A program made the position numbers and the translations under genes. Below, piece by piece: positions 1 to 58,816 of a DNA stretch of 64,000 nucleotides. The stretch's first letter is position 1. The number at the start of each line of letters is the position of its first letter. The stretch lies in assembly GCA_963839205.1 (NCBI GenBank), contig CAWITU010000002.1, forward strand, positions 772 through 64,771. The letters run 5' to 3'. The notes under the pieces were generated by a model. The model was not told the DNA's origin and made no database searches. It was given only the letters and a program-made list of their open reading frames with translations. The DNA comes from an uncultured bacterium. GTDB taxonomy: Bacteria; Patescibacteriota; Minisyncoccia; Phycocordibacterales; CAWITU01.

Positions 1-96
1 TTTATAGCTATCAATGTTAACTTGATGGGCTAGCGCAGAAGCGCGGTCCCCAGGGTTAATAACTTCCAATTCATAATTCGATGCGTTAATTGACAT
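1..96 (-). CDS. hypothetical protein, 5' end only (gene runs off the window start)
   Basis: ATG at 96-94 with a GAGGA-like RBS about 8 nt upstream. The frame stays open to base 1 (MSINASNYELEVINPGDRASALAHQVNIDSYK...). It is truncated, so absent from the ORF track. Confidence 0.3.
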   Translation of the reverse strand, partial: MSINASNYELEVINPGDRASALAHQVNIDSYK

Positions 97-168
97 AGAT
101 CTAATCCTCACTTTCTCAAGCAATACCCTACAGGAATGACCCCAAAAATACTAGTAGCCCTATCATAT

Positions 169-900
169 TTACTTATATTGTTCTCGATTAATATCTGGTA
201 TACCTGCCTCAGTAAGAATTTGGCGTGACTGAATAATTTGTTCTGCATTTAGACCATCTACAACATCAGTGCCCTCACCATCAACCTCTGTCTTTATGAT
301 ATTTTCAGCTGTTCCTTGTTGAATTCCCACAGCCAACATCCCAAGTGTGCGCTGAAAAGCAAGATTGGTAGCGAGCTTTGTTTTTATAGTCTGAGATATG
401 GCCTTATAACTATTACGAATAGCTAAAACTGAAGCACCCAAAAGTGTTCCCGCCTCAGCAACACGTGGCAAATAGTCCATATAGACCTTAGCCCCTTCTC
501 CCGATTCTGAATTCCCTATCATATTTATAAATTCTTGGACAGGACCATTTAAATCCATATCAGCAAAAACGCCAGCCGCAACAATCCCTGATATAACCGC
601 CCCCTTTACATATTTACTTGGACGAGTGAGATTTTCCTTAATATATTTTTGAAGATCAGCCTTAATTGTCTCGGCAAGTGTTGGGCCATTAAAAGTGTCC
701 TCAAATCCATCTTCTCTTATATACGTGCGCTTTGATAGTTCCTCCTTGATTTGTGTCATTCTCTCCGCAAGAGTCAACTTTTCTTGGGCTATTTCTATAC
801 CCTCTTGTGCTTTGATACCCTCCTCGGGTGTCATTGGTAATCGTCCCATACCTTCGAAATTATCACCTTCATTTGTTTTCATAGGTTTATATCCTTCCAT
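169..900 (-). CDS. hypothetical protein (243 aa) with hydrophobic central segments
   Basis: Long ORF in the track, tightly spaced behind the small ORF 910-1083. No family motif recognised. Confidence 0.55.
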   Translation of the reverse strand: MEGYKPMKTNEGDNFEGMGRLPMTPEEGIKAQEGIEIAQEKLTLAERMTQIKEELSKRTYIREDGFEDTFNGPTLAETIKADLQKYIKENLTRPSKYVKGAVISGIVAAGVFADMDLNGPVQEFINMIGNSESGEGAKVYMDYLPRVAEAGTLLGASVLAIRNSYKAISQTIKTKLATNLAFQRTLGMLAVGIQQGTAENIIKTEVDGEGTDVVDGLNAEQIIQSRQILTEAGIPDINREQYK

Positions 901-909
901 TTCAGTAAA

Positions 910-1083
910 TTATTTTTCTTCTAATTGCTTATCAGTTGGCATTGATTGAAGAGTTGTAACAAATTCTCCAAATAAACCATTAACTGTTTTTAAATAATTA
1001 ACCATTTCATTGTTTGTAGCTGAGCCATCCTTTACTTTTTTAGTAAGAAGGTCTAATTCTTTAGTGTTTAGCGGTTCATTCAT
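910..1083 (-). CDS. small hypothetical protein (57 aa)
   Basis: ATG at 1083, TAA at 912-910, MNEPLNTKELDLLTKKVKDGSATNNEMVNYLKTVNGLFGEFVTTLQSMPTDKQLEEK. It lies 9 nt upstream of the next start and is below the ORF-track size cutoff. Confidence 0.35.
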   Translation of the reverse strand: MNEPLNTKELDLLTKKVKDGSATNNEMVNYLKTVNGLFGEFVTTLQSMPTDKQLEEK

Positions 1084-1132
1084 AAAATAACTATACTGAA
1101 AAACTTAAACATTGTAAAACAGGTGTGTAATG

Positions 1133-1208
1133 TGGTGCGCCCAGTTGGAATCGAACCAACGACCCTCTGCTTAAAAGGCAGGTGCTCTACCGACTGAGCT
1201 ATGGGCGC
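1133..1208 (-). tRNA. tRNA-Lys (anticodon UUU), CCA encoded
   Basis: The reverse complement folds as a cloverleaf: acceptor GCGCCCA/TGGGCGC, anticodon loop CTTTTAA, T-arm GGTTCGATTCC, 3' ACCA. Confidence 0.95.
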
Positions 1209-1212
1209 ATGT

Positions 1213-1449
1213 TTATATTCTATCCTTCAAAAACCTTCTACCAAACCCCATCTTGAAGTACTTCTCCCTTGCAATTGCTTTTTCCTTACTAAGGCAAGCT
1301 TCATAATAAAGTAGTATCAAGGGCCTTCTATCTTTTGTTGCTGGCACTCTGCCCAAATTATGTTTTCTCACTCTTTCTTTTAAATCATCACTCCAACCTA
1401 TATAAAGTTTGGAATCCTTTTGACTCAATAAGACATAAGTATAAAACAT
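1213..1449 (-). CDS. stand-alone GIY-YIG nuclease family protein (78 aa)
   Basis: YTYVLLS..KLYIGWSDDLKERVRKHN ... YYE ... AIAREKYFK matches the small GIY-YIG (UPF0213/COG2827-type) pattern. The stop lies 4 nt from the tRNA-Lys 5' end. Confidence 0.85.
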   Translation of the reverse strand: MFYTYVLLSQKDSKLYIGWSDDLKERVRKHNLGRVPATKDRRPLILLYYEACLSKEKAIAREKYFKMGFGRRFLKDRI

Positions 1450-1475
1450 ATTTGTTTTGCACTAAAGGAACAGCT

Positions 1476-1543
1476 AGTCGACTGACTGAGCTACCTGCCC
1501 GCCACTGGCTTCGCCAGCAGGCGATGGCAGGCGGGTGGGCGCA
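1476..1543 (-). other. tRNA-Lys 5' fragment (acceptor 5' strand + D-arm) split by a 42-nt GC-rich hairpin
   Basis: Minus strand reads GCGCCCA-[CCCGCCTGCCATCGCCTGCTGGCGAAGCCAGTGGCGGGCAGG]-TAGCTCAGTCAGTCG. The flanks copy tRNA-Lys positions 1-7 and 8-19. The insert pairs CCTGCC/GGCAGG, CGCC/GGCG and CTGGC/GCCAG with a GAA loop. Confidence 0.6.
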
Positions 1544-1589
1544 AAAGATAGGGAAATTTATACCATACTTTTAATTATTTTGCATTTAT

Positions 1590-2303
1590 TTAGAGGCTTA
1601 AAATAAACTGCTCGAGAGCGCTTTGAAGTTCGTAGGCTCCACGATGGGCTTCGTGATAAATCTCAACTAATTTTGACGAAAGATTTCTGAGTTCTTTTTC
1701 AGAATAATTCTTTGAGAAACCTTTTGCTTTAGAGTACACAAAAGGTTTGAGCCCAGAGGCGGCGGCCGAATCGGCCGCCGCCGCCAAATTCATTGATTTA
1801 ACCTGCCAAAAAAGAGTACCGTGAATTTCTTCTGGTACTGATCCATTCTTCATTGCTTGAAGATATAGCATCCACAAATTTTTCTTATCTCTCTTCCCTA
1901 AGGCGTCAGACAATCCAAATATATTAAATTCCTTTTTTACTACTTCGTCTTTTTCAGACTCTTGTATTTTCTCAGATTTTTTTTCTATCAATTTCAATGA
2001 GTCCTTATCCAGTTTTTGTTCAATGAAGATAAATATATGCTCCGAGGAAGATATCTCGTCTAGCTTTGAAATAATTCTTTCTTTTGCTTCATCATTTTCA
2101 AAAACATGATCAAAAAGCACAATGTACTTTGCTTCAAAAAGACCTTTTCCTTCAATAAAATTATCTAGTTCTGCTTCATTCCAATTATCCGATTCAATTT
2201 TATAGAAAGAAGCATTTGGTTTTCTCTTCAAAAGACTGTCCTTAAGTGCAGTCGCTTTTTCTCTCGTTTTTTGTCGATCTTGTCCGTAAAAAAAATAAAT
2301 CAT
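1590..2303 (-). CDS. holA: DNA polymerase III delta subunit-like (short HolA)
   Basis: N-terminal IYFFYGQD start and FGLSDALGKRDKKNLWMLYLQAMKNGSVPEEIHGTLFWQVKSM resemble the HolA clamp-loader delta subunit. It overlaps the polA stop by 4 nt (operon). Confidence 0.6.
   Translation of the reverse strand: MIYFFYGQDRQKTREKATALKDSLLKRKPNASFYKIESDNWNEAELDNFIEGKGLFEAKYIVLFDHVFENDEAKERIISKLDEISSSEHIFIFIEQKLDKDSLKLIEKKSEKIQESEKDEVVKKEFNIFGLSDALGKRDKKNLWMLYLQAMKNGSVPEEIHGTLFWQVKSMNLAAAADSAAASGLKPFVYSKAKGFSKNYSEKELRNLSSKLVEIYHEAHRGAYELQSALEQFILSL
1758..1782. repeat. intragenic GC-only hairpin, 11-bp perfect stem, 3-nt loop (in holA)
   Basis: GGCGGCGGCCG-aat-CGGCCGCCGCC. It encodes the low-complexity insert AAAADSAAAS, using GCG on one arm and GCC on the other. 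Confidence 0.9.
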
Positions 2304-4702
2304 AGTTGTTTCATAACTTGCCAGCTTGGTCCAACTTTTGCTTCTGCTTTCATCACAATTCCTTCTGTCTCACTAAGCGGCACCACATCTTCCATTACTT
2401 TTTTAATTTTAGTAGCGATACTTTCTAATACATCATCTTGTACTTCATATAATAATTCATCATGAACCTGAAGTAGTGGATAAACTTTTTCCTCTAATTT
2501 TTCTTTAACCAAAAATTCGTCCACTTTAATCATGGCTAATTTAACTATGTCAGCCCCAGTCCCTTGGACTGGGGCGTTTATTGCCATTCTTTCAGCCATC
2601 GCTTTTATAAAAGGTAATTTCGATTTAAGACCCGGAAAATATCTTCTCCTACCAAATAATGTTTCGGTATATCCCCTTCTCATAGCCTCTCCTTTTACAT
2701 TATCCAAATATTCAGCAAGCCCAGAAAACGTTTTAAAGTAATCATCATAAAATTTTTGAGCAGTTGCTCTATCTGATCCCAAATTAGTACGCAAAGCATT
2801 AACTCCCATACCATAAATAATTCCAAAATTTATAACCTTAGCTTGTCTTCTCATTTCTTTATCAACCTTATCAAGTGGAACCCCAAAAACTTCAGAGGCA
2901 ACTGCCGTATGAATATCCTCGCCTTCTTTAAATATAGAAATTAGTTTTTTATCTTTCGAAAGAAAAGCGGCAATACGAAGTTCCATTTGAGAATAATCCA
3001 ATGATAAGAGCGAAAATCCTTTTTCGGCAATAAAAGCCTTACGAATATTTCGGCCAAGTTCACTTTTGATTGGAATATTTTGTAAATTTGGATTTTGTGA
3101 AGCCATTCGTCCGGTAGTGGAACCAGTTTGAATTAGAGTGGTATGAAGTCTCCCGTCTTTTGCGACGAGATCTGGAATTGAATCAATATAAGTAGTTAAA
3201 AGTTTTGAAAGCTCACGATATTTGAGTACTTCTTTGATTATTGGGTGAAGATCAGTCATCTTTTCTAACTCTGATTCTTTGGTTGATTTTGCGCCACCAC
3301 CAGTTTTCTTCTGGTTCTTAACCTTAAGCCCCATTTTTTCAAACAAAATTACTCCGAGCTGTTTTGGTGAAGAGACATTAAATTTCTCCCCGGACATCTC
3401 CCAAATCTTTTCTTCAATACTTGAAAGTTCCTTATGATATTCCTTGGAAAGCCTTTTCAGTTCTGCGGTATCTACCTTTATTCCCCTCTTTTCAATTTTT
3501 CCAATTACAGAAATCAGGGGTAATTCAATTTTTTCAAAAACCTTTTCCAAATCTCTTTTTTTAAGCTCGGCAAAAATAATTTCTGAGGCTTTAGTAAAGT
3601 CCTCAATCTTTGCAAAACTAGTTATGTCCTCTAGGGTCGGATTCGTTATTTCTGAATTAATAATCCAAAGAGCTACTGCTGTTTTTTTAAATTCTATTTC
3701 ATCAATTTTCTGTACTTCTTTTACAGATTCTTTCTCAAGCGAAAATTCTTTCTGACTAATCCCTTGGGCTTCAAAAAAAATCTGATCGAGTCTGGCCGAT
3801 AGGCTTCTAAAATCTAAGTCAGCGAAAAATTTTTTAACCTCGTCCTTTGAAAAAGTTTCTTTCCAAGTTTTTTCTGGTAAATCAAAATCAATTGGAGCGT
3901 CTCGACGAATGGTCGCAAGCATTTTAGAAAATTCCGCCTCTTCCTCACCATCTTGAAGTAATTTAATTATTCTATCTGTTAAACCTTCTTTTTTAAATTC
4001 ATCTGGATTCTTTTTCAAAATGTTGTACATACTTTCTATCGTCCCAAATTTTTGAAGAAGGGTTGATGCGGTCTTTTCACCAATCCCAGCAATGCCAATT
4101 ATGTTATCTGACGGGTCGCCACGTAGTCCTTTAAAATCAGGAAGTAGTTTTGGTGGAAAACCAAAACGATCAACAACCGCTTTTTCGTCATACATAACTG
4201 TGTCATTAATTCCCTTTTTCAAAGTGTAAGCTTTGACTCTATCGCCATCTACCAATTGAAGTGTGTCCATATCTCCGGACGCAATAATAATTTCAATATC
4301 ATTATTGTCTTTCAACTTTTCAACAATCGTTCCCAACATGTCGTCAGCCTCAAACCCTGGCTTGTCATACATTGGAATATTAAAAGATTTAAAAACATCT
4401 CTTGATTTAATTATTTGGGAAATAAGTTCCGGATCAGCCTTTTTTCTACCAGCTTTGTATTCAGCATAAGCCTCGTGCCTATATGTAGGTTCCGGTAAAT
4501 CATAACAAGCGGCTAAATAGTCTGGTTTCAAATCATGAATAATTCGAAGGAGCATGGAAGATAGCCCATATAAACCTCCGGTTGCTTCTCCTTTGCTTGA
4601 GACAAAATCAGGAAGGGCGTGATACGCCCGGTGAAGAATTGCATGAGCATCAAAAAGAATTAGTCTTTTTCTATTTGATTGTGATTTCTCTTTCTTTGTC
4701 AT
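2300..4702 (-). CDS. polA: DNA polymerase I (5'-3' exonuclease + polymerase domains)
   Basis: 800 aa. Contains LILFDAHAILHRAYHAL (5' nuclease), DYSQMELRIAA (motif A), RRQAKVINFGIIYG (motif B) and LQVHDELLYEV (motif C). Confidence 0.95.
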   Translation of the reverse strand: MTKKEKSQSNRKRLILFDAHAILHRAYHALPDFVSSKGEATGGLYGLSSMLLRIIHDLKPDYLAACYDLPEPTYRHEAYAEYKAGRKKADPELISQIIKSRDVFKSFNIPMYDKPGFEADDMLGTIVEKLKDNNDIEIIIASGDMDTLQLVDGDRVKAYTLKKGINDTVMYDEKAVVDRFGFPPKLLPDFKGLRGDPSDNIIGIAGIGEKTASTLLQKFGTIESMYNILKKNPDEFKKEGLTDRIIKLLQDGEEEAEFSKMLATIRRDAPIDFDLPEKTWKETFSKDEVKKFFADLDFRSLSARLDQIFFEAQGISQKEFSLEKESVKEVQKIDEIEFKKTAVALWIINSEITNPTLEDITSFAKIEDFTKASEIIFAELKKRDLEKVFEKIELPLISVIGKIEKRGIKVDTAELKRLSKEYHKELSSIEEKIWEMSGEKFNVSSPKQLGVILFEKMGLKVKNQKKTGGGAKSTKESELEKMTDLHPIIKEVLKYRELSKLLTTYIDSIPDLVAKDGRLHTTLIQTGSTTGRMASQNPNLQNIPIKSELGRNIRKAFIAEKGFSLLSLDYSQMELRIAAFLSKDKKLISIFKEGEDIHTAVASEVFGVPLDKVDKEMRRQAKVINFGIIYGMGVNALRTNLGSDRATAQKFYDDYFKTFSGLAEYLDNVKGEAMRRGYTETLFGRRRYFPGLKSKLPFIKAMAERMAINAPVQGTGADIVKLAMIKVDEFLVKEKLEEKVYPLLQVHDELLYEVQDDVLESIATKIKKVMEDVVPLSETEGIVMKAEAKVGPSWQVMKQL
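2543..2565. repeat. intragenic hairpin, 10-bp perfect stem, 3-nt loop (in polA)
   Basis: GCCCCAGTCC-ctt-GGACTGGGGC, overlying the conserved INAPVQGTGAD segment. Confidence 0.85.
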
Positions 4703-5108
4703 TAATATGAGTGAAATAAATTAATGCGGCATCTTTCGGTAAAATTCCTTTAACTTTTTCTGGCCATTCAATAAAAATAATATTTTTCGGATTTTCTGCG
4801 ATTTCTTTAAATCCTAGTTTCAAAAGTTCTTCGGCGCTTTCAAGTCGGTATGCATCAATGTGAATTAAATGTTCAAAATTTTCTGTTTTAATCTTATAGA
4901 TTTTTTCGATTACAAACGTTGGGCTCTGAACAGTATCTGTCACCCCGAGTGATTTGGCAACTGCCTTAACAAAAGCCGTTTTACCGGCTCCAAGATTACC
5001 GGACAAACCAACAATAATTGCTCCATTGTGTTTTTTCTTCAAAATATCTTTCACAAATTCTTTAGCTATTTTTTCAGTTTCTTTTGGGCTTTTCGATACA
5101 AGTTTCAT
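4671..5108 (-). CDS. tsaE: tRNA t6A37 biosynthesis ATPase TsaE
   Basis: 145 aa with P-loop GNLGAGKTAFVK, SPTF and HIDAYRL motifs typical of YjeE/TsaE. Confidence 0.85.
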   Translation of the reverse strand: MKLVSKSPKETEKIAKEFVKDILKKKHNGAIIVGLSGNLGAGKTAFVKAVAKSLGVTDTVQSPTFVIEKIYKIKTENFEHLIHIDAYRLESAEELLKLGFKEIAENPKNIIFIEWPEKVKGILPKDAALIYFTHINDKEREITIK

Positions 5109-26467: not shown

Positions 26468-28978
26468 TTAAGATTTATGTTCCCCTCCCCCACCTCCACT
26501 TCCCCCCACGTCGTCTTTTTCCTTTTTCGATTCACCCCCCTTTTTGCCCGCAAAATCTTTAAGTTCATCAAGCAACCTGTCTTCTTTAGATTTCCTAAGT
26601 TCTTTTCTTATATTTAATGCCGCTTCTTTGGAGGCTTGAGAATGGGCGGTAGAAGTTGAGCAATCTTGGTTTTTCTAATTGTTTTGAGTAGTTAAGCTGT
26701 CTAGTTTTTCCTTGGTCTCTAATTATTTTTATCTTATTATCTGCTTGATTAAGCTGTTGATCAAATTCTTTTTGTTTTGTTTCAATAGTATTTTTTGTTC
26801 GGTCATTAATTTCCTTAATCTTGTCGTCAAAAGCACTCAATCTTTGTGCTATTGGTTGTTTTGTTTTTGTTATCACATCACCCTCTATCTTCAAAGATTC
26901 TATTTTGTTTTGATACTCAGCCCGCTTGTATGGATTTGTTTCTAGCGCACCCATACTTTTATTGTGCTCAAGTTCCTCCTTGATCTCAGACAATCTTTGA
27001 TTCATCTTCTTTTCTTCCTCAAGGTCTTTTTTATATTCACTGCCCTCTGAGCCCTCATTTAATGTTTTAAGTTCTAATTTACCTTTTTCTTCAATTTCTC
27101 TCTTTCCTTTCTTTTCAAACGTATCCTTATTATCATTAATTTCTTTCTTTCTTTCCTCGGTGGTGTCAATTTCTTTCTGTTCGTTGTAAGTTTGTTTTCC
27201 AATTTCTTTACTAAATTCTAATTTGGCTTTCTCATTATCTGATAGGGCTTTTCTGTATCCACCATCTTTTGCCTTTCCAAGGTCTCCTAGTGAACCAGTT
27301 ATAGCGCCAGTTACAGAACCCGCACGCGCGTCAAAACTAGATTTCGCAACCTTGGAGGTTCCTTTATACAAGAATCTAGTAAATGCATTGTTTGCTGCAC
27401 CCTCTTTGAGAAGTGCGCTTTTACTTTCTGCCCATGTTTCCGACTGTATTTCTTCCAATCATGGCAGTTCCTCCAAATACTGTTCTTCCTGCAAGTTTGG
27501 TTCCTGCATTTACTGCTCCCGATACGGCCGCTCCACCACTCGAGGCCATTGATTTTGAAATAACAAGTGAAGTAATAAGGAATCCCATTGCGATAACTAA
27601 ATGGAAAATAAATCCTGTTGCACAGGCCCAGTCTAATGCCCCGCCAGAAATGGTGCTTAGGAACCCAACCGCTCCATTTTGACCACTACACCCACTTCCG
27701 TTATTGAAATTATTTGAGCCAATGATTTGCAGTGTTACCCACATTAAAGCAAAGAAAACTACTGGAAATATACTCTGGTCAAATAAAGTTTTCCACCACT
27801 TCTCAGCAATCATAGAATTAGTTTTGGGTAGGATCATGCTCGCAAAAGCAACCGGCGAGACAATTATCAAGAAAACAAGAACAACATACCTCACAATAAA
27901 TAGTACACAAGCTATGAGTAGAACCACCCCGACAAATAAAAGAAGTCCTGACATTAATATCGATTGAATAAATGCTTGAACATAATTAGTATTGTTAAAT
28001 TGGATTGTGGACTGATTAACAGAAGTGCCGGTGGTTGTCTTTCCGCCAAGGAAAGACGAAAGGCCAAGATTTGAAAGAAAGGCGGTTGCTATTCCTCCTG
28101 ATGGGTCAAATCCTACCAAGGTGGCGCCAACTGAACCCTGTGCAGGAGTTTCAATTGCATTCAAAAAAGTTAAAGTTAAAATATTTGTCCCATCAATAAT
28201 TACTTCAGTGAAAAATAAACTGAAGTTGATTAATAAGGCAATAACAATAACCATACTTAAGATTTTTTTAGTATTAAAACTCTCAAGTCTCAAGATTAGG
28301 GCAATAGAAATATACAGGAGAATAAAGATGAAAAAGATATTTGAAAGGTCTCTGAATGTAGACCACGTTGTATTGACAATCGGCCCTAGGTCGCTGGCAC
28401 CTAAATGTGTTGCTAGATTGGCTACTGTATAGCCGACTACAAAATTAAGTAAAAAGGCAATTATTGTGACAACCATACCAACTATCGCAAAAACAGCTAA
28501 GGCTATCGCTTGAAATAATGAACAAACTATTCCAGCTGGGTCTGGAACAACTAGCCAGACCGCGGACTGGCACCCTGCACTTTTGGTGGAGTTGCCACTT
28601 CCTGTTGTGCCAGTGGTTTGGGAGGCGGCGGCTACGCGGTACGGCGGCGGCAACGGCGGTAGATCCAAACGAAGGTGTTGTAGCGTTACTTGTACTATTT
28701 GATCCAGTTTGAGATGAATCGAGTGATGATCCATTAGGTAAAAGAGTAGTATCGTAAGGATTAGTACCTGTTTCGCTACTCCCGCCAGTACCCACATCAA
28801 GTGTCGGAGTTGAACCTAGGTCTGAAGATGCCCCAGTAGTGTCACTACCAGTAGTATTTACTGGGTTACCGTTTGCATCAAAAATTTGGGCAAAAACAGT
28901 AAAAGGTGATACAAACGAGGCTGTAATTAATATCCCCAAAACTAATTTTTTATATTCTTTCTTCATTATTAATATCAA
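26468..28978 (-). pseudogene. large polytopic membrane protein (VirB6/TrbL-like by context) with a long coiled-coil K/E-rich tail; at least 3 frameshifts
   Basis: The signal-peptide ORF 28445-28978, the multi-TM ORF 27421-28800 and the coiled-coil ORF 26595-27458 connect only by frame changes. A further shift at AAGAAAAGA extends the tail (ELRKSKEDRLLDELKDFAGKKGGESKKEKDDVGGSGGGGGEHKS*) to 26468. Confidence 0.6.
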
Positions 28979-36543: not shown

Positions 36544-38090
36544 GATTCACTTTTCTTCGGTCTATACTGTAGGGCTTCTAATAAGTGTTTATCTTCTACT
36601 TTTTCCTTTTTATCTAAATCGGCTATTGTTCGTCCGAGTTTAATAATTCTGTGATACGAACGTGCTGATAAGTCTAATTTGGTAGCAAAATTATTTAATG
36701 TTTCCAGTGCTCCTTTTTCCAAATTAGCTAATTTTATTATTTCTTTAACCGGGATTTCACTATTTAAATGAATATTTGATGGCAGGTGTTTAAGACGGAT
36801 TCTCTGAATCTCTCTGGCTTGTCTAACGCGCTCGACAACCGAGAAACTTTTTTCACTTTGGTTGTCGAGCGCTAGTTTCTGGTGATCAACAACCGGCGCC
36901 TCTATCCACATATCAATTCTATCCATTATTGGCCCAGATATTTTACGATTATAGTGACTGAGTTCTCTGATACTACAAACGCATGATTTGTTTTTAACTC
37001 CCTGATTGCCACAGGGACACGGATTCATTGTGGCAATCAAAATAAACTGTGCAGGAAAATGCGAAGAACTTTTTACTCTTGAAATAGTAATCATCCGGTC
37101 CTCTAGCGGTTGGCGAAGGGATTCAATAACTCGTTTTTCAAATTCTGGGAATTCATCTAAAAACAAAATCCCTCTGTGGGCTAAAGTAATTTCTCCAGGC
37201 TTTGGGTTTGTACCTCCTCCGACCATGGCAACGTATGAAACGCTATGGTGCGGAGATCTAATGGGAGGTTTAACGATTAGACTTTCTTTAAGAGAGCCTG
37301 CAACTGAATGAATACTGGTAACTTCAAGAATTTCTTCAAAGCTCAAGGGCGGCAGGAGGCCTTTGAAAGCTTTTGCTAACATGGTCTTGCCAGTACCGGG
37401 CGGACCGAAAAGAACAATGTTGTGGCCTCCTGCCGCTGCTATTTCTAATCCCCTTTTAGCCATTTCTTGGCCTTTGATGTCTGATAGATCAATTTCATTT
37501 GGTTCTTTGGTAATAATTATTTTTGTTGGAGGCGCGGCCACCATGGGTGGCCGCGCCTCACTTTTCTCCCCTTTTATATTTACATGATTAATAACTTCTT
37601 CTAATGTGTTTGCTCCAAATATTGAAATATCTCTAATGAGGGCTGCTTCCTCGGTGTTTTCTTTTGGTAAAAATATTTCTTTGAATCCAGCGCGTTTTGC
37701 CTCAATCACCTGTGGCAAAACGCCCCTAATCTTCTGTAGTGTACCGTCTAGTGATAACTCCCCAATAAAAATTCTTTTATCAGCTTTAAATGAAATCTCT
37801 TTTGATGCTAGTAGATATGCCATCGCAATTGCTAAATCAAAAATTGGACCCTCTTTTTTAAGATCTGCTGGAGCCAAAGAAACAATTATCTTTTGGTTTT
37901 TACTTTTTGGTGATGAAAAGCCGCTGTTTTTAATTGCAGATGAAACTCTGTCTCGAGACTCCTCAACTGCTTTATCAGGAAGCCCTACAATAGAAAAAGC
38001 GTGGAGACCTTTTGAAAGATCCACCTCCACGCTTATGATCTGAGCCTTAAGAAGTGAATGTTGGGCACTCCAAACTTTAGCAAAACTCAT
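36540..38090 (-). CDS. comM: YifB/ComM family Mg-chelatase-like AAA+ ATPase
   Basis: 516 aa. Lon-like N-terminal domain, Walker A GPPGTGKTM, LFLDEFPEF, and the cysteine cluster NPCPCG. Confidence 0.9.
   Translation of the reverse strand: MSFAKVWSAQHSLLKAQIISVEVDLSKGLHAFSIVGLPDKAVEESRDRVSSAIKNSGFSSPKSKNQKIIVSLAPADLKKEGPIFDLAIAMAYLLASKEISFKADKRIFIGELSLDGTLQKIRGVLPQVIEAKRAGFKEIFLPKENTEEAALIRDISIFGANTLEEVINHVNIKGEKSEARPPMVAAPPTKIIITKEPNEIDLSDIKGQEMAKRGLEIAAAGGHNIVLFGPPGTGKTMLAKAFKGLLPPLSFEEILEVTSIHSVAGSLKESLIVKPPIRSPHHSVSYVAMVGGGTNPKPGEITLAHRGILFLDEFPEFEKRVIESLRQPLEDRMITISRVKSSSHFPAQFILIATMNPCPCGNQGVKNKSCVCSIRELSHYNRKISGPIMDRIDMWIEAPVVDHQKLALDNQSEKSFSVVERVRQAREIQRIRLKHLPSNIHLNSEIPVKEIIKLANLEKGALETLNNFATKLDLSARSYHRIIKLGRTIADLDKKEKVEDKHLLEALQYRPKKSES
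36828..36872. repeat. intragenic hairpin, 13-bp perfect stem, 19-nt loop (comM)
   Basis: GCGCTCGACAACC ... GGTTGTCGAGCGC. Confidence 0.9.
37005..37039. repeat. intragenic hairpin, 10-bp perfect stem, 15-nt loop (comM)
   Basis: GATTGCCACA ... TGTGGCAATC, over IATMNPCPCGNQ. Confidence 0.8.
37349..37436. repeat. intragenic long-range inverted repeat, 13 bp perfect, 62-nt spacer (comM, brackets Walker A)
   Basis: GCGGCAGGAGGCC (37349-37361) pairs with GGCCTCCTGCCGC (37424-37436). Confidence 0.9.
37539..37569. repeat. intragenic hairpin, 14-bp perfect GC-rich stem, 3-nt loop (comM linker)
   Basis: GAGGCGCGGCCACC-atg-GGTGGCCGCGCCTC, encoding EARPPMVAAPP. Confidence 0.95.
37692..37723. repeat. 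intragenic hairpin, 10-bp perfect stem, 12-nt loop (comM)
   Basis: GCGTTTTGCC ... GGCAAAACGC. Confidence 0.8.
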
Positions 38091-46845: not shown

Positions 46846-46883
46846 GCGGGCCTGCCCCGCCGTAGCTCACGAAGTGAGCGAAG
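46846..46883 (+). promoter_or_regulatory. structured tRNA-Gly(GCC) leader: acceptor-like minihelix + GAA-loop hairpin
   Basis: GCGGG-cctgc-CCCGC (46846-46860), then GCTCAC-gaa-GTGAGC (46865-46879), ending 4 nt before the tRNA. In an alternative pairing, TGCCCCGCC pairs with the tRNA 5' strand GGCGGGCA. Confidence 0.6.
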
Positions 46884-46957
46884 GCGGGCATGGTTTAGTG
46901 GTAGAACACATCCTTGCCAAGGATGAGACGGGAGTTCGATTCTCCCTGCCCGCACCA
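46884..46957 (+). tRNA. tRNA-Gly (anticodon GCC), CCA encoded
   Basis: Acceptor GCGGGCA/TGCCCGC, anticodon arm CATCC-TTGCCAA-GGATG, T-loop AGTTCGATTCT, 3' ACCA. Confidence 0.95.
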
Positions 46958-49982: not shown

Positions 49983-50041
49983 AGGAAGAGTATATCAAAA
50001 TTGTCTGAAATAGATTGGTCTGATATATTAATGAAGCTTTG

Positions 50042-50091
50042 GCGGGCTTGCCTCGCGAAGTCCTGCTTCGCTGAAGCTTCGCAGGACGTAG
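50042..50091 (+). promoter_or_regulatory. structured tRNA-Gly(UCC) leader: acceptor-like minihelix + hairpin
   Basis: GCGGG-cttgc-CTCGC (50042-50056; 13/15 identical to the motif at 46846), then GTCCTGC...GCAGGAC (50060-50087), ending 4 nt before the tRNA. Confidence 0.6.
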
Positions 50092-50162
50092 GCGGGATTA
50101 GTTTAATGGTAGAATAACAGTTTTCCAAACTGTGGGTGGGAGTTCGATTCTCCCATCCCGCA
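50092..50162 (+). tRNA. tRNA-Gly (anticodon UCC), no encoded CCA
   Basis: Acceptor GCGGGAT/ATCCCGC, anticodon arm ACAGT-TTTCCAA-ACTGT, T-loop AGTTCGATTCT. Confidence 0.9.
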
Positions 50163-54354: not shown

Positions 54355-55610
54355 TGAAAAAACTTCTAACTATTGCTGGGCGTATTATCAATTTCAATTC
54401 AATGTTTCTCGGTACTGTTGTAATTGATCGAAGTACTGGTCTGATTGTTGAAATTAAGGCTTACAATCCGAGGGCGGACATTGCCAGTCACGAAGCTTCA
54501 TATTTTTGCTGGTTTTGTTGACCTCCATGTTCACGGCCGAGAAGATTCGACCGCGAAGCAAAACTACAAGGAGGATTATCAGACGCTTGGAGAAGCGGCG
54601 ATAAATGGTGGTGTTGTGGCCTTGGCTTCAATGCCTAATCTACCTCTGCCTCCGACAACGCTCAAACTTTATCGTGAGATTGAGGAGTTGACTCTAAAGT
54701 CTCGGGTGACAGTTATTCCGTACGCAGCAATCGCTCCCGGTTCTCGGCCATTTGGGAAGTATCCATACAAGGGATTCTTGGCCGAATCGGTTAACGATTT
54801 GAAGTTTACTTCGGAGAAGGAGGCAGCAAAAACCCTCCAACATTACCGCGGTAAACATGTTAGTCTCCACTGCGATGATAATGAAATACTGAAGGAGTCG
54901 GCAGGCGAGTCTACGCATGAAAGGCGCCGGCCGGCCTCGTCTGAAGTTCGGGCAGTACGATTTGCCATAAATCAGGCGAGAGAGAACAGGTTCAATCTTA
55001 AGGTAGTTCACTGTTCAACAAAGGAAGGGCTGGGATTAATTGTTCGGGCGAAAAGGAATCGCAATGTAAATATCGTTGTCGAAGCGACACCTCACCATAT
55101 TTCGACAAACATCAGTTTTTTAAATGATGCTAATCGGAGATGGTGGCAGATGAATCCTCCGATTCGCGATCGAGCTGATCAGGAAGCAATTTTAAAGGGG
55201 TTGGAATTAGGTGACATTGATTTTTTTGCCACCGATCACGCTCCTCATACCAAGGAAGAAAAGGAAAAGGGTATGTCAGGTCAACCTCACTTGGATACCT
55301 TCGGATCTATTTCTGACCTCATTAATCGTCCACGAAAGGATTTAACCCGACAATCATTGCTCGGGTGGCTTCCTATAATCCTGGTCGTTGGCTTAATCAG
55401 TTCTTGTCTCGGAAAGCTCCGAGGCTTGGGCAGATTGCTCCAGGATTTGCTGGGTCGTTGACGATTCTTGATTTGGAAACACCGATCAAGTTTACCAATG
55501 CAATGGTGAAGAGTAAGTGCAGGTGGTCGCCTTTCCACGGAAAGACTTTCCCGGGAAGCGTCGCCTACACAATCATCCGTGGGGAGATTGTGAAAGGACA
55601 TGAACTCTAA
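54355..55610 (+). pseudogene. pyrC: dihydroorotase (PyrC-like amidohydrolase) with at least 3 frameshifts
   Basis: The N-terminus MKKLLTIAGRIINF...EASYF stops in a T5 run, just before AGFVDLHVHGRED (ORF 54445). FATDHAPH is present. The C-terminus switches frames twice around 55305-55340 (LFLTSLIVHE / GFNPTIIARVASYNPGRWL) and ends in ORF 55365-55610. Confidence 0.8.
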
Positions 55611-55624
55611 GTTGAAAATTATTT

Positions 55625-55652
55625 GGCCGGCTGCGAAACTACGCAGCCGGCC
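55625..55652. terminator. bidirectional terminator between pyrC and doxX
   Basis: GGCCGGCTGCG-aaacta-CGCAGCCGGCC, flanked by AAAT and TTTTT. Confidence 0.85.
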
Positions 55653-55663
55653 TTTTTGTTTGT

Positions 55664-56071
55664 CTAAAGAGGAAGATCAAAAGCGTAATATCCCGGACCG
55701 CTTAATGTTAGAGAAATTAAGATTACTAAAAGAATAAAGTATAAAACTCTCTCATGTTCAAGTGTTGTTGGGTGTTGAAGTTTAACAATAAAGGCGACCG
55801 CCATGATGACTGCGAGAATTAATGCAGTAGGTTGAGTAAGAAGTCCAACGACTAGAAGCACTCCACCAATTAATTCGATAATTCCCAAAGAGATAGCAAA
55901 GAAAAGACCTTGTCTAAATCCAATTGATTCAAAAAATAGTTTCTTGTGAGTTCTTTTGGTGGTTAATTTCTGATAACCATAAAAAACAAACAAACATCCA
56001 ATCGCCACTCTTAGTAAAAGTGGAGCAAAGAAACGAAAATTTAAAAGATAGGGAATGGTTGAAAGTAACAT
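55664..56071 (-). CDS. DoxX family membrane protein
   Basis: 135 aa, four TM helices. LLRVAIGCLFVFYGYQKL is typical of DoxX. Confidence 0.75.
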   Translation of the reverse strand: MLLSTIPYLLNFRFFAPLLLRVAIGCLFVFYGYQKLTTKRTHKKLFFESIGFRQGLFFAISLGIIELIGGVLLVVGLLTQPTALILAVIMAVAFIVKLQHPTTLEHERVLYFILLVILISLTLSGPGYYAFDLPL

Positions 56072-57500: not shown

Positions 57501-58816
57501 TATTTTTTAAGTTCCAAATATTTTTTTAGTTCCTCTTTGGCAACTTCAGCGTCACTCCAAATAGTTCGAGTATTGTTTGGTCCCATGATGTATGGGTCGG
57601 TTCCTTTGCCTGTTATGATTACCGTATCACCAGTTTTAGCCTTAGATACAGCCCTCGCAATCGCTTCGCGTCTCTTCATAATTATTTCATATCGTTTCTC
57701 AGTGATTCCCTTAGCCATATCTGCCAGTATGTTCTCGGGTTTTTCATCGTAAGGGTCCTCGTCAGTCAGAATTATTTCGTCACAGTAGGTGTCAGCAATT
57801 TTACCCATCTCAGGTCTTTTCCATTTGTCGCGGCCGCCGCCTGTGTTGCCTAGAACACAGACGCGGCGGCCGGTCTTGAATACTTCATAAATTTTTTTAA
57901 GAGAGTCTGGGGTGTGAGCGTAATCAACAATTACTCTGAAATCTTGTTTCAAAAATAATGGATCAGTTTCATCAAGTGTTATCTTTTGTACTCGGCCAAG
58001 GATTCCTTTAAATTTTTCTAAGGCATTTTTGATTGTATCTAAGTGCACACCTTCTTGCGTCTTCGTATAAGTAATTGCTGCAAGAATATTTGAGATATTA
58101 AAAATCCCTGGCAAGTTTGTACTTATTTTTTCTCCAAGGTAAGTTATTTCAGAACCTTCAGTACCCAAGACAAATGGTTCGGCTTCAGCTAACGAATATG
58201 TTAATTTTTCAAGACCATCAATCTTCAGGAATCTTTCACTTTCTTTATCATCCGCATTAGCTACCAAAATCTTTCTTGGTTTATTAGATTTTGCTAATGC
58301 TAGAGCTATGCTTAGTTTAGCCCTAACGTATTTTTCGTATGAGCCATGCGATTCAATATGTTCGGGTGAAAGGTTGGTGAAAAGCAGAGCGTCAGAATCA
58401 ATAAATCGATGTCGGTATTGTTTTGCTCCCTCGGAAGTCATTTCTAAAATTGCATAGTCACATTTTGCAGTCACTGCATCTCTTAAAAATTTCTGAACAA
58501 AAAATCTTCCTGGAATCGTCATTTTGTATTTATTCGCTCTTGACTCATCCCCAATTTTAAATCGAACAGTTCCTGCGAGTGACGTTTTGTACCCAGCTTC
58601 TTCCAGGATGGCATTTACTACTTCAACTGTTGAGGACTTTCCTTTGGTACCTGTGACCATTACAACTTTAATATTTCGTGAAGGAAAGTTATAAATGACT
58701 GCCCCTGAAAGTGCTAATAGAAAGTGGTAGGAAGGTTGAGCAAAGGCAAAAATATTTCTCGGAATATATTTTTTTATTGTTCGAAGAACATTGTCCGCAC
58801 TCATATTATTTTCCAA
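57500..58816 (-). CDS. murE: Mur ligase family protein (MurE-like)
   Basis: VTGTKGKSST P-loop, IVDYAHTPDSL, VLGNTGGGRDKWKRPEMG, and LTDEDPYDE (DNPR-like). Confidence 0.7.
   Translation of the reverse strand: MENNMSADNVLRTIKKYIPRNIFAFAQPSYHFLLALSGAVIYNFPSRNIKVVMVTGTKGKSSTVEVVNAILEEAGYKTSLAGTVRFKIGDESRANKYKMTIPGRFFVQKFLRDAVTAKCDYAILEMTSEGAKQYRHRFIDSDALLFTNLSPEHIESHGSYEKYVRAKLSIALALAKSNKPRKILVANADDKESERFLKIDGLEKLTYSLAEAEPFVLGTEGSEITYLGEKISTNLPGIFNISNILAAITYTKTQEGVHLDTIKNALEKFKGILGRVQKITLDETDPLFLKQDFRVIVDYAHTPDSLKKIYEVFKTGRRVCVLGNTGGGRDKWKRPEMGKIADTYCDEIILTDEDPYDEKPENILADMAKGITEKRYEIIMKRREAIARAVSKAKTGDTVIITGKGTDPYIMGPNNTRTIWSDAEVAKEELKKYLELKK
57831..57872. repeat. intragenic hairpin, 10+7 bp stem with 2-nt bulge, 6-nt loop (murE-like)
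   Basis: CGGCCGCCGC-CTGTGTT-gcctag-AACACAG-ac-GCGGCGGCCG, encoding RRVCVLGNTGGGRD. Confidence 0.9.

Follow-up and report, generated by a model that had tools for sequence, protein, structure and literature searches.

Read on the minus strand, the locus in the window (the whole 64,000-nucleotide stretch of DNA analysed here) starts with a promoter-like site, followed by a fragment of a tRNA-Lys gene split by a GC-rich hairpin, a small GIY-YIG nuclease gene, and an intact tRNA-Lys(UUU) gene (Table 1). Every feature of this layout listed in the first-pass annotation is present, with minor coordinate corrections; GCGCCCA is indeed a copy of the first seven tRNA bases but ends at 1542, not at 1549. 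The hairpin (CCCGCCTGCCATCGCCTGCTGGCGAAGCCAGTGGCGGGCAGG) has a GCGAAGC core and is predicted to fold as DNA with −14.8 kcal/mol (z = −3.1). With the hairpin removed, 17 consecutive bases are identical to positions 1–17 of tRNA-Lys. The probability of such a split match arising by chance anywhere within the upstream 400 nt is about 5e-7, a rough bound. The bases that follow the fragment (AGTCG...) show no significant alignment with the tRNA (519 of 2000 shuffles equal the score), and at locus L001, extending the fragment as far as the anticodon arm gives no significant match either (286 of 2000 shuffles); the window fragment therefore comprises positions 1–17 only. The D-arm piece is part of a near-palindrome (AGCTCAGTCAGTCGACTAGCT) with a predicted fold of an 8-bp stem with one bulge, which might conceivably be the scar of a snap-back repair. 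From its sequence, TGgTATAAA may act as a promoter; it is absent from a consensus promoter scan because it has no −35 match. TGGTATAAA occurs at the natural distance 5′ of an identical tRNA-Lys in five sites that lack the ORF and the hairpin (empty sites L109, L110, L111, L114, and L115). The TAA stop codon of the ORF overlaps the leader motif TAAACAT, and two of the empty sites (L109 and L111) as well as the occupied site L001 likewise have (G/A)TAAACAT 5′ of the identical tRNA-Lys.

Table 1. Features of the locus and of a weak hairpin relative elsewhere in the window
Feature	Position	Strand	Remarks
Promoter-like extended −10 site TGgTATAAA	1557–1565	minus	14 nt 5′ of the tRNA fragment; sequence reading
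GCGCCCA, copy of tRNA-Lys positions 1–7	1536–1542	minus	acceptor stem 5′ strand; exact match to 1202–1208
Hairpin, GC-rich imperfect palindrome, 42 nt	1494–1535		between tRNA positions 7 and 8
TAGCTCAGTC, copy of tRNA-Lys positions 8–17	1484–1493	minus	D arm; exact match to 1192–1201
Near-palindrome, 21 nt	1472–1492	minus	D-arm piece plus partial inverted self-copy
GIY-YIG nuclease ORF, 78 aa	1213–1449	minus	catalytic domain only; UPF0213/Slx1 branch
ACAT, 4 nt	1209–1212	minus	final tRNA leader bases
tRNA-Lys(UUU), intact	1133–1208	minus	ARAGORN; Rfam RF00005, 74.6 bits
Weak hairpin relative in the tRNA-Gly(GCC) leader	46851–46892		3′ arm is the first 9 tRNA bases

The product of the ORF matches the GIY-YIG family of Pfam (PF01541) with 55.1 bits (cut-off 22.6, E = 9.3e-15). 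A homology search gave 445 homologs, the best being 67–83% identical, and 488 relatives were confirmed in species-representative genomes, mostly of the Patescibacteria type. In an alignment of 31 sequences, Y4, Y15, G17, R25, H29, and E61 are invariant and E49 is nearly so; we take the catalytic roles of the conserved residues to be those assigned after I-TevI. A pair of C-terminal helices (REKYFKxGFGRxFLKxR) is invariant and specific to the subfamily. The closest relatives by sequence are UPF0213 proteins and Slx1, with profile matches to PDB entries 1zg2 (E = 1.7e-8), 1ywl (E = 3.3e-6), and the Slx1 structure 7wme (E = 0.008). The AlphaFold model (pLDDT 95.3) has the strand–strand–helix–strand–helix–helix order of the GIY-YIG fold. 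The best Foldseek matches to the model are 1zg2, Slx1, and I-TevI, with E-values that reach only 0.003–0.15 because the domain is small. The catalytic fold and one helix pair take up all 78 residues, and there is no separate DNA-binding domain. As the protein ends at residue 78, without the C-terminal zinc finger of Slx1, it is not an Slx1 orthologue. NCBIfam holds no specific family for the protein, and exact-protein look-ups of the GIY-YIG protein and of HolA from the window matched no record. A phage origin was rejected, as PHROG gave no match and the family occurs in a single one of 2.9 million viral contigs; a defence-system reading was rejected as well, the PADLOC match being marginal (E = 0.002 over 28 residues). 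The dN/dS ratio is 0.07–0.12 (0.07 against L001); the ORF is under strong purifying selection and would encode an active protein, a predicted nuclease.

The first-pass annotation described the hairpin-split tRNA as an oddity. The hairpin belongs instead to one conserved family linked to the ORF, and in some relatives it takes the form of inverted repeats around the ORF. Thirty-five distinct hairpins align as a single family, with the orientation reversed in 18. In 300 kb, 85 of 88 pattern matches (97%) lie within 200 nt of the ORF. The family covariance model (R1) matches 70 of 80 species-level loci and, among 11 control loci that lack the ORF, not one; the remaining species loci mostly have split or nested arms. 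With R1, the window hairpin reaches 47.2 bits when read on the minus strand and 37.3 bits when read on the plus. It is identical in 41 of 42 positions to the hairpin of L001, which is inverted, despite an ORF dS of about 1.8 between the two loci. The search for further copies in the 64-kb window gave one strong R1 site and neither a second GIY-YIG gene nor a second strong hairpin. Hairpins are nested or arranged in tandem at L036, L045, L053, L062, L093, and L102. Two arms flank the ORF in constant order at L037, L042, L047, L056, L061, and L098, and hairpins also occupy the apical loop of another hairpin or of an AT-rich, terminator-like hairpin (L098 and L073). The use of either orientation, the nesting, and the arms around the ORF suggest that the hairpin acts at the level of DNA. 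Split 5′ fragments with hairpins but without an ORF are found at L108 and L040, where the hairpins are of types other than R1, and as second copies in L009, L083, L087, and L092.

A tRNA gene is located 0–122 nt downstream of the ORF, on the same strand, in at least 63 of the 80 species-level loci. The partners span 12 amino-acid types, and in many loci the gap is only 0–7 nt; at two further loci, the partner is a tRNA-Asn that contains a group I intron. An exact copy of the 5′ end of the partner tRNA itself lies beside the ORF in 46 of 71 distinct loci (upstream in 45), where a GC-rich hairpin of the conserved family splits it cleanly. Across the loci compared, the duplicated part is the 5′ end of the tRNA, not the 3′ part. 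The insertion points of the hairpins span positions 3–22 of the tRNA copies and cluster at 7–8, 10–12, and 19–22. No clear target consensus is seen at these points, with a weak preference for TA at one junction, and there is no short or fixed-length target-site duplication; the 5′ duplication is long and of variable extent. The acceptor stem of the fragment differs from that of the intact tRNA at L013, L027, L053, L068, L071, and L093, as judged by sequence comparison. The ORF lies to the right of the hairpin, to the left, or inside it (outside in most tRNA loci), a variability that is not predicted by one simple mechanism. A genome may hold several copies of the ORF, some of them in tandem (L071/L075 and L097). 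The arrangement is also found in a protein gene. At four NAD-epimerase loci (L038, L042, L055, and L061), a 5′ fragment of the gene is cut at GGAGF; next come the hairpin or arms, then the ORF, and then the complete gene, which begins with an ATG of its own. At L061 and L055, the bases 3′ of the element (TCGGTTC) have codons unlike those of the local gene and are donor-like. At L042, the two N-termini of the epimerase differ, which suggests that one end is foreign.

An exact search for the tRNA-Lys sequence (a 73-mer) found nine metagenome contigs with the identical tRNA and with neither the ORF nor the hairpin. Empty sites, which the first pass proposed to compare with occupied ones, thus exist. 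The site formed by DoxX and tRNA-Lys is occupied in L001–L006 and empty in L107, L109, L110, L111, L114, and L115, six of the nine contigs, a comparison of distant relatives (DoxX 32–47% identical) rather than of strains. With empty sites in existence and a fragment match beyond chance, the locus is neither an arrangement common to all relatives nor a fortuitous similarity. Behind holA, the nearest relatives by HolA (81% and 56% identity) carry a convergent gene and no tRNA, and they gave no direct empty/occupied pair for the holA locus of the window. As tRNA-Lys lies behind DoxX in distant relatives and is missing behind holA in the closest ones, the whole unit in the window has been relocated, together with its tRNA. 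The core of the first annotation, the insertion of a mobile GIY-YIG gene at a tRNA gene with one intact and one disrupted partial copy as its outcome, has strong comparative support, since the arrangement recurs at 12 tRNA types in dozens of genomes and empty sites exist; the window locus itself is not a simple in-place insertion. In the pairs window/L001, L082/L083, and L083/L087, similarity is confined to the stretch from the fragment to the tRNA and the flanks are unrelated, which points to a block that moves as a unit. No integrase gene lies between holA and tRNA-Lys in the window. Among the ORFs, no pairs with at least 80% DNA identity were found at different tRNA types, and the nearest protein neighbour is at the same tRNA type in 23 of 65 cases (11 expected), a weak clustering; recent jumps are therefore undocumented. 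Synteny is seen in the copy pairs L025/L028 and L054/L089, and many copies appear to be old and to have been passed on vertically.

Our reading is that region 1133–1565 is one copy of a selfish cassette, carried mainly by Patescibacteria-type genomes, that spreads by homing; as a whole, we hold this statement to be probable with moderate confidence. That a mobile or selfish element made of the GIY-YIG gene and the hairpin is linked to tRNA genes at their 5′ ends is very likely. Homing with a carried 5′ end is a more tentative proposal for the mechanism, plausible but just short of what we would call probable. The element is widespread in ultra-small Patescibacteria and apparently undescribed. 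The cassette would have three parts: the 78-aa GIY-YIG gene, the conserved palindrome of about 40 nt, and a substitute 5′ end for the gene that is targeted. The palindrome would be the collapsed, ORF-less form of the two inverted-repeat arms of the element. The nuclease, of the Slx1/UPF0213 type and without a DNA-binding domain, would cut a conserved gene free of the cassette near its 5′ end, in tRNA genes within the D arm near the GCTCAG box, and the cassette-bearing copy would be the template for repair of the break. As the cassette has the leader and the beginning of the target immediately behind the ORF, the repaired locus would end in an intact gene. The resident promoter and 5′ end would remain upstream as a non-functional remnant that contains the palindrome; in the window, the remnant would be tRNA-Lys positions 1–7 and 8–17 on either side of the hairpin. 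A single transcript probably runs from TGgTATAAA through the fragment, the hairpin, the ORF, and the tRNA, which RNase P would then free. It would begin at about 1556–1550; a start within the 3′ end of the ORF, at the promoter-like TTGGTA-16-TAGAAT (1244–1217), is a possible alternative. The hairpin would interrupt the direct repeat, blocking loss of the ORF by recombination between the two tRNA 5′ copies, and may also protect the fragment against recutting.

Homing has its counterpoint in the protein itself, whose 78 residues offer no evident means of recognising a long site. In addition, the intact tRNA behind the ORF retains any site that lies within the tRNA, so that self-immunity is left unexplained. 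Homing also accounts for the spread of the 5′ duplication, not for its first origin. The split 5′ fragments with hairpins at sites without an ORF, the variable place of the ORF relative to the hairpin, and the lack of near-identical ORFs at different tRNA types speak against the reading too. A more specific version of the proposal is possible, although we are inclined to doubt it. The element would be a new class of bacterial mobile element, largely of Patescibacteria, whose nuclease, in an Slx1-like way, recognises the folded DNA form of its own 40-nt palindrome and enters the 5′ ends of tRNA genes and genes for Rossmann motifs, with the carried 5′ end and promoter context healing the damage. 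The same nuclease may recognise the related GCTCAG stem-loop of tRNA genes too.

The features of the hairpin family would also suit an inverted-repeat transposon, an explanation that we regard as unlikely. The GIY-YIG protein would cut and paste, or copy, a unit of arms, ORF, and arms, together with its 40-nt ORF-less derivative, into DNA that forms stem-loops (the D arm of tRNA genes or the loops of other hairpins). The 5′ duplication would then stem from widely staggered cuts, from repair synthesis, or from survivors in pre-existing partial duplications. The constant order of the arms at six loci agrees with such a transposon, as do the short ORF-less copies (35 distinct hairpins) in both orientations, the entry of hairpins into the loops of other hairpins and of terminator-like hairpins, the clean insertions without flanking sequence of their own, and the weak TA preference. 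Target duplications of fixed length would be expected and are not seen; the copies are not dispersed (one strong site in 64 kb, 97% of matches beside the ORF), and at most tRNA loci the hairpin does not enclose the ORF. We know of no GIY-YIG enzyme that carries out strand transfer. At L061 and L055, the foreign codons that follow the element are better explained by a carried target than by a local duplication.

Purifying selection as broad and strong as that on the ORF could also mean a benefit to the host. The GIY-YIG protein could have a cellular role, such as repair or processing at strongly transcribed tRNA genes, with the fragment and the hairpin as a stabilising or regulatory leader. The common strand and narrow gap of ORF and tRNA, the promoter before the fragment, and the syntenic, apparently old copies are all in keeping with a host operon. 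We nevertheless consider it improbable, given the patchy distribution with empty sites at an identical tRNA, the choice of 12 tRNA types and a protein gene as partners, and the several, at times tandem, copies in one genome. Because the hairpin is oriented at random, it does not preserve a fixed RNA sequence; some hairpins are nested, and at some loci, the ORF is inside the hairpin arms. A coincidence, in which an independent GC-rich miniature repeat mobilised by another enzyme landed in a decayed tRNA duplicate near an unrelated GIY-YIG gene, is very improbable. There are other GC-rich palindromes in the window (1749–1788 and 37529–37559), and other hairpin types split tRNA fragments that lack the ORF (L108 and L040), but the palindromes fail the family model, the hairpin and the ORF occur together in essentially all 80 species loci (70 matched by the model, with no matches in the control loci), and the arms flank the ORF in six. 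The intron-containing or split tRNA raised in the first pass, with the upstream fragment as a 5′ exon spliced to downstream sequence, can practically be discounted: the fragment does correspond to tRNA positions 1–17 and relatives do have group I introns in tRNA-Asn, but no group I or other Rfam intron model matches within 1–5000 at E up to 10, the 237-nt ORF leaves no space for a ribozyme core, the tRNA downstream is whole and reaches 74.6 bits by itself, and the introns of the relatives are in the anticodon loop of the downstream tRNA, unlike here.

As a homing cassette, the element resembles the mORFs of fungal mitochondria, which form gene hybrids in atp6 of Allomyces macrogynus and in atp6, atp9, cox2, and nad3 of Glomus (PMC3630166). 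An mORF brings a foreign gene terminus, the native terminus is left as an unexpressed relic, and the hybrid gene is functional (PMC3630166). Both systems have a free-standing endonuclease gene (GIY-YIG in atp9) inside a conserved gene and a duplicated gene terminus beside the ORF, here at 46 of 71 tRNA loci and four epimerase loci. The mORFs replace the 3′ (C-terminal) end in organelles, whereas the element in the window replaces the 5′ end, with leader and promoter context, on a bacterial chromosome. It also differs in its mainly tRNA targets, its 78-aa nuclease, and its conserved inverted-repeat hairpin. According to the first-pass annotation, an association of small GIY-YIG genes with tRNA loci is known. 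In the searchable literature, we found this for phage T4 SegB only, and we found no published description of the architecture of GIY-YIG gene, hairpin, and tRNA 5′ fragment. SegB is a free-standing GIY-YIG homing endonuclease within a tRNA gene cluster that recognises a conserved motif of tRNA genes (T-psi-C) and drives the inheritance of itself and of neighbouring tRNA genes (PMC2330249). The GIY-YIG gene among tRNA genes is common to both, but the insertions here are in the acceptor and D-arm region, and SegB is a phage gene without target duplication or hairpin, whereas the present family is found in one of 2.9 million viral contigs. In I-TevI and in Seg proteins, the catalytic domain is joined to a DNA-binding domain, which the 78-aa protein lacks. 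SegB and other Seg endonucleases are about three times longer than 78 aa, with a separate DNA-binding region. The nearest sequences and folds, UPF0213/YhbQ/YazA and the Slx1 domain (1zg2, 1ywl, 4xm5, and 7cq3), have the URI-type GIY-YIG core in common with the protein. Slx1 is a structure-selective nuclease for branched DNA (PMC7017083). By analogy, an Slx1-like activity fits a hairpin or cruciform substrate here; unlike Slx1, the 78-aa protein has no zinc finger and no Slx4 partner. A link of YhbQ/YazA to tRNA genes or hairpins was not found in the literature.

Short GC-rich palindromes in AT-rich genomes are also known from REP elements with their RAYT transposases and from mitochondrial GC clusters and double-hairpin elements. 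These share with the present hairpins the use of either orientation, the nesting, and a long form with an enzyme gene between the arms. Their copies are dispersed, whereas the hairpins here stay by the nuclease gene in 5′ fragments, and the REP-type enzymes are HUH or DDE transposases rather than GIY-YIG. MITE-like transposons likewise have a long form with an enzyme between arms and short copies without it; their fixed target duplication and many dispersed copies are not seen here (64-kb window and 300 kb scanned for the hairpin pattern). Islands and prophages with tyrosine integrases that enter tRNA genes carry a partial tRNA copy, rebuild an intact tRNA, and leave a partial duplicate at the other end. 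The site in a tRNA gene and the partial copy are shared; in the islands, the duplicate is the 3′ part of the tRNA and an integrase gene is present, unlike in the element of about 330 nt, which duplicates the 5′ part and has no integrase.

Known selfish elements in essential genes are spliced out (introns and inteins) or carry the 3′ end of the gene (islands and mORFs). The present element appears to use a third way in, supplying tRNA genes with a new front end and promoter context. If so, essential single-copy genes can be colonised without an intron or intein. Patescibacteria have tiny genomes in which tRNA genes are typically single-copy, and the element would offer a route for the movement and exchange of tRNA genes between genomes and a reason why tRNA genes change place in this group. 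It would also account for the tRNA-like fragments and GC-rich hairpins, hundreds in number, that lack an annotation in genomes of Patescibacteria. The substrate of the widespread small GIY-YIG proteins of the UPF0213/YhbQ type becomes testable, and a minimal predicted nuclease of 78 aa with a defined DNA hairpin as partner is a possible practical tool.

Other hairpins in the window were compared with the family. The GC-rich palindrome inside holA (1749–1788) was rejected as an insertion, as homologs have the same length and R1 does not match; a further GC-rich palindrome (37529–37559) has no R1 match. The resemblance of the hairpin end to tRNA-Gly genes and their leaders, noted in the first pass, is close for the start of tRNA-Gly(GCC), GGCGGGCATG, which has one mismatch to the end of the window hairpin, and weak for the leader. 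The leader hairpin has −14.4 kcal/mol as DNA (z = −4.6) and matches R1 with 18.7 bits (E = 0.036); whether it belongs to the R1 family is uncertain. A copy of GCGGGC precedes this hairpin.

The minus-strand reading and the annotation bear out what the first-pass annotation had described at this locus, a tRNA-Lys gene preceded by a small GIY-YIG ORF and by a 5' fragment of the tRNA that is split by a hairpin. Of the span it gave, 1133–1549, only the upper end changes, to 1542. With the palindrome removed, the fragment is an exact copy of tRNA positions 1–17 (rough chance bound 5e-7); in the window, similarity to tRNA-Lys past position 17 is not significant. As DNA, the palindrome has a stable predicted fold (−14.8 kcal/mol, z = −3.1). 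The G+C content of the window is 37.8%.

Parts of the cassette and its surroundings, in minus-strand order
Feature	Position	Strand	Basis or remark
End of polA and holA	holA 2303-1590	minus	Pfam DNA_pol3_delta_C (holA)
Extended -10-like TGgTATAAA	1565-1557	minus	sequence reading
GCGCCCA, first piece of the fragment	1542-1536	minus	sequence reading
42-nt GC-rich imperfect palindrome CCCGCCTGCCATCGCCTGCTGGCGAAGCCAGTGGCGGGCAGG	1535-1494	minus	sequence reading
TAGCTCAGTC, second piece of the fragment	1493-1484	minus	sequence reading
34-nt spacer	between TAGCTCAGTC and ORF	minus	starts with a partial inverted copy of the bases before it
78-aa ORF	1449-1213	minus	Pfam GIY-YIG, E = 9.3e-15
ACAT	between ORF and tRNA-Lys(UUU)	minus	
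tRNA-Lys(UUU)	1208-1133	minus	ARAGORN; Rfam 74.6 bits

The ORF has 445 homologues at E ≤ 1e-5, the best 120 of which are 67–83% identical across all 78 residues, and a scan with one genome per species confirmed at least 488 relatives. Loci were compared for the best 80 of these species-level relatives (L numbers denote loci and contigs, also those from metagenomes; WIN is the window's own locus). Most carry record titles of Patescibacteria lineages (Paceibacterota, Doudna-, Magasanik-, Zambryski-, Woese-, Levy-, Roizman-, Saccharibacteria and others); about 20 of the 80 are titled otherwise, for example 'uncultured Gammaproteobacteria' (names as deposited). A tRNA gene lies 0–122 nt downstream of the ORF on the same strand in 63 of the 80 loci, with Lys UUU/CUU, Asn, Thr, Phe, Met, Gln, Val, Ile, Ala, His, Leu and Pro as partners. 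Two further loci have a tRNA-Asn directly behind the ORF that was missed by ARAGORN because its anticodon loop holds a group I intron (RF00028; L023 1762–1996, 79.4 bits; L064 1765–1977, 69.7 bits), and therefore two kinds of mobile element share one tRNA gene there. One more (L070) has a tRNA-like start truncated at the contig end. The arrangement also holds in strain-level metagenome contigs. The cassette layout is recurrent and no accident.

The partner tRNA's own 5' end is duplicated beside the ORF in 46 of 71 distinct loci; the duplicate is upstream of the ORF in 45 of them, whereas in L102 it lies between ORF and tRNA. It is split cleanly by a GC-rich insert of 30–82 nt, with exact matches of at least 4–6 nt before the insert (5') and at least 5 nt after it (3'). 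The insertion point is variable and clusters after tRNA positions 7–8 (the window included), 10–12 and 19–22 (D loop). Past the insert there are only about 7–12 more tRNA bases, then about 7 nt and the ATG of the ORF. The tRNA leader and promoter region are also part of the duplicate in several loci (L029, L040, L046, L059, L084). Split fragments with hairpins also occur without an ORF, in L108 and L040 and as second copies in L009, L083, L087 and L092. Those at L108 ~975–1068 and L040 ~535–643 and 180–291 precede intact genes for tRNA-Lys, tRNA-Ala and tRNA-Leu without an intervening ORF. The ORF-less hairpins at tRNA-Lys and tRNA-Ala differ in sequence from the family (TCCCGAC..GTCGGGA; TCGCCCACAGGGCGA plus CCACCCAGTGGGTGG) and may be additional hairpin families with the same habit.

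The target is a protein-coding gene, for an NAD-dependent epimerase/dehydratase, in L038, L042, L055 and L061. Here the 5' fragment covers the start codon through the ..TGGAGF codons and is followed by the hairpin or its left arm, the ORF and an intact gene with its own ATG (..TGGAGFIGSH..). In L042 the two N-termini are unlike each other (MNILV.. and MKRNKILV..), and in L061 and L055 the TCGGTTC (coding IGS) directly after the element has the codons of L042, unlike the local intact gene. Read together, these sequences suggest that the element carries the duplicated target sequence, at least in part. Differences between the acceptor stems of fragment and intact tRNA in L013, L027, L053, L068, L071 and L093 point in the same direction. 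Gene conversion between the repeats can explain why fragment and intact tRNA are identical in old copies; L083 and L087 each hold two hairpin-bearing copies, identical inside each genome and different between the genomes.

The ORF-linked hairpins form a single family, in which 35 distinct simple hairpins align with a one-orientation consensus CCCGCCCGCCATCGCAAGC..GCTTGCTCAGGCGTTGCGGGCGGG. Relative to ORF and tRNA, 18 of the 35 have the opposite orientation, and this randomness favours a DNA element over a sequence-specific role of the RNA. Of 88 hairpin pattern matches in 300 kb of distinct locus DNA, 85 are within 200 nt of a GIY-YIG gene. A covariance model (R1) built from 27 hairpins finds the hairpin in 70 of the 80 species loci (the others mostly have split or nested arms) and has no match in 11 loci without the ORF; in the 64-kb window it finds one strong site (47.2 bits). 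The window hairpin is identical at 41 of 42 positions to that of its nearest relative, L001, where it is inverted. The two ORFs differ at almost all synonymous sites (dS ~1.8), which leaves strong constraint on the hairpin sequence or its recent exchange as explanations. In most loci the ORF is to the right of the hairpin. In about 12 tRNA-Lys(GGGCC..) loci it is to the left; the hairpin then abuts the tRNA, and its terminal GGG also forms the tRNA's first bases. In six loci (L037, L042, L047, L056, L061, L098) the ORF lies between the two arms, whose order is constant, so the short hairpin appears to be an inverted-repeat element, one able to carry the ORF, in collapsed form and without the ORF. 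Hairpins are tandem in L093 and L102 and nested in the apical loops of others in L036, L045, L053 and L062, always directly 5' of (C)TCAGGCG. The conserved bulge GCTCAGGCGTT has GCTCAG in common with the tRNA D arm; this motif and the nesting site hint at how the target may be recognised.

An exact search with the 73-nt tRNA-Lys returned nine metagenome contigs, none of which encodes the GIY-YIG ORF or has the hairpin. In six of the nine the tRNA lies behind a DoxX gene and the promoter TGTGGTATAAAA; the DoxX context is common to these empty contigs and the occupied loci L001–L006. DoxX is only 32–47% identical among these distant genomes, so the site is a conserved one, filled or empty, and no strain polymorphism. 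No tRNA follows the DoxX gene of the window (55664–56071), behind which lie a terminator-like hairpin and a convergent gene (55600–56071 region), nor holA in the closest holA relatives. In the window lineage promoter, fragment, hairpin, ORF and tRNA therefore occupy a new place as a unit, the tRNA-Lys gene having moved from behind DoxX. Both ends of the unit look native to a tRNA-Lys gene: the fragment is fronted by TGGTATAAA, and, here as in the empty sites, TAAACAT stands directly before the intact tRNA. Similarity of related cassettes is limited to the fragment-to-tRNA stretch, with unrelated flanks, in WIN/L001, L082/L083 and L083/L087. The pairs L025/L028 and L054/L089 are syntenic and look vertically inherited. 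No recent jump of the ORF between tRNA types was found among the compared loci.

Other rearrangements were seen in these regions. In the window, ~977 nt (156–1132) with two minus-strand ORFs (910–1083, 57 aa; 169–900, 243 aa; no above-threshold Pfam and no PHROG match) separate the tRNA-Lys 3' end from 155..46, which in L007 adjoins the tRNA directly with 100% identity; this is either an insertion/deletion at the tRNA 3' end or a chimeric assembly in L007. The ~1060 nt extra in L028 as compared to L025, directly past the tRNA-Asn 3' end, is another such insertion/deletion. In L013/L014 (2240–2440) a tRNA-Ile(UAU)-like gene (GGTCCGG..) has a 114-nt insert in its anticodon loop that holds another complete tRNA (GGAGCAG.., Rfam 76 bits); sister contigs L015–L022 are without it. 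Window positions 54445–55610 hold an amidohydrolase-family gene in two overlapping ORFs (338 and 81 aa); a frameshift or sequencing error might explain this, as might a pseudogene.

An alignment of 31 sequences of the ORF family has a mean column identity of 78%, and the GIY-YIG catalytic residues and the C-terminal REKYFKxGFGRxFLKxR segment are invariant. dN/dS is 0.07–0.12 in seven ORF pairs; one more pair is identical in protein. The AlphaFold model of the 78-aa protein is confident (pLDDT 95.3), and the structures closest to it are 1zg2, Slx1 (TM up to 0.74) and the catalytic domain of I-TevI. Profile searches match the solved UPF0213 proteins BH0048 and EF2693, and Slx1 weakly; Slx1, YhbQ and YazA are regarded as one family (PMC7017083). 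The protein has no DNA-binding domain, and no specific NCBIfam or PHROG family and no convincing PADLOC family was found for it. A library at 50% identity contains 737 clusters at E ≤ 1e-10 and 5386 at E ≤ 0.001, so the wider small GIY-YIG group is large, with the tight subfamily collapsing into few clusters. The gene is present in only 1 of 2.9 million viral contigs, in the usual tRNA-Lys layout.

The unit is most likely a selfish cassette that occupies conserved genes at their 5' ends. Among described systems, fungal mitochondrial mobile ORFs follow the most similar logic: an endonuclease gene moves together with a foreign terminus of the target gene, the hybrid gene is functional and the native terminus remains as a relic (PMC3630166). 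The cassette would mirror this: what stays as a relic would be the promoter and 5' end of the resident gene, and the cassette would supply the 5' end of the working gene behind the ORF. SegB of phage T4, also a GIY-YIG enzyme, has its site in a conserved tRNA-gene motif and spreads tRNA genes with itself (PMC2330249). A cassette-free gene would be broken near the GCTCAG/D-arm region and repaired with an occupied copy as the template, the fragment providing the left homology and the intact gene the right. The resident promoter would then drive a transcript across fragment, hairpin, ORF and tRNA, from which RNase P would free the tRNA. By cutting the direct repeat into stretches of at most 20 nt, the hairpin would hinder deletion of the ORF by repeat recombination and could hinder re-cutting of the relic. 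Against this mechanism, any internal site persists in the intact tRNA, which leaves self-immunity unexplained; the ORF can be right of, left of or inside the hairpin; and split fragments with hairpins occur without it. An inverted-repeat element moving by cut-and-paste or copy is a serious rival, and a role beneficial to the host is possible. For the selfish cassette, the known kinds are the GIY-YIG nuclease, the palindromic miniature element and the replacement of a gene terminus by a mobile ORF; the combination of 5' polarity, tRNA targets and a bacterial host appears new, and full-text literature searches returned no published description of the architecture. It should interest researchers of mobile DNA and of Patescibacteria genomes.

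Further GC-rich stretches occur in the window. The leaders of both tRNA-Gly genes (46851–46892; 50040–50096) have a GC-rich hairpin, and in front of each hairpin the first bases of the tRNA recur as a short copy (GCGGGC, GGCGGG). The tRNA-Gly(GCC) leader hairpin, whose 3' arm is the tRNA's own 5' end, matches R1 weakly (18.7 bits, E = 0.036); the tRNA-Gly(UCC) leader has no match to R1 and folds no better than chance. The palindrome GGCGGCGGCGGCCGATTCGGCCGCCGCC inside holA (1749–1788, coding AAAADSAAAS) has no match to the hairpin family and was rejected as an insertion, since the homologous stretch in relatives has the same length. None of the islands at 37529–37559 (perfect 14+14 palindrome GAGGCGCGGCCACC/GGTGGCCGCGCCTC), 28619–28659 (GGCGGCGGC-rich) and 57831–57872 (16-nt inverted repeat) matches the hairpin model. 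In L102 (768–878), inverted GC-rich arms, CCTGCCCGACTTGCCTGAC and GTCAGGCTGG, enclose a tRNA-Arg(CCU) gene, as if the tRNA sat in the loop of a hairpin element.
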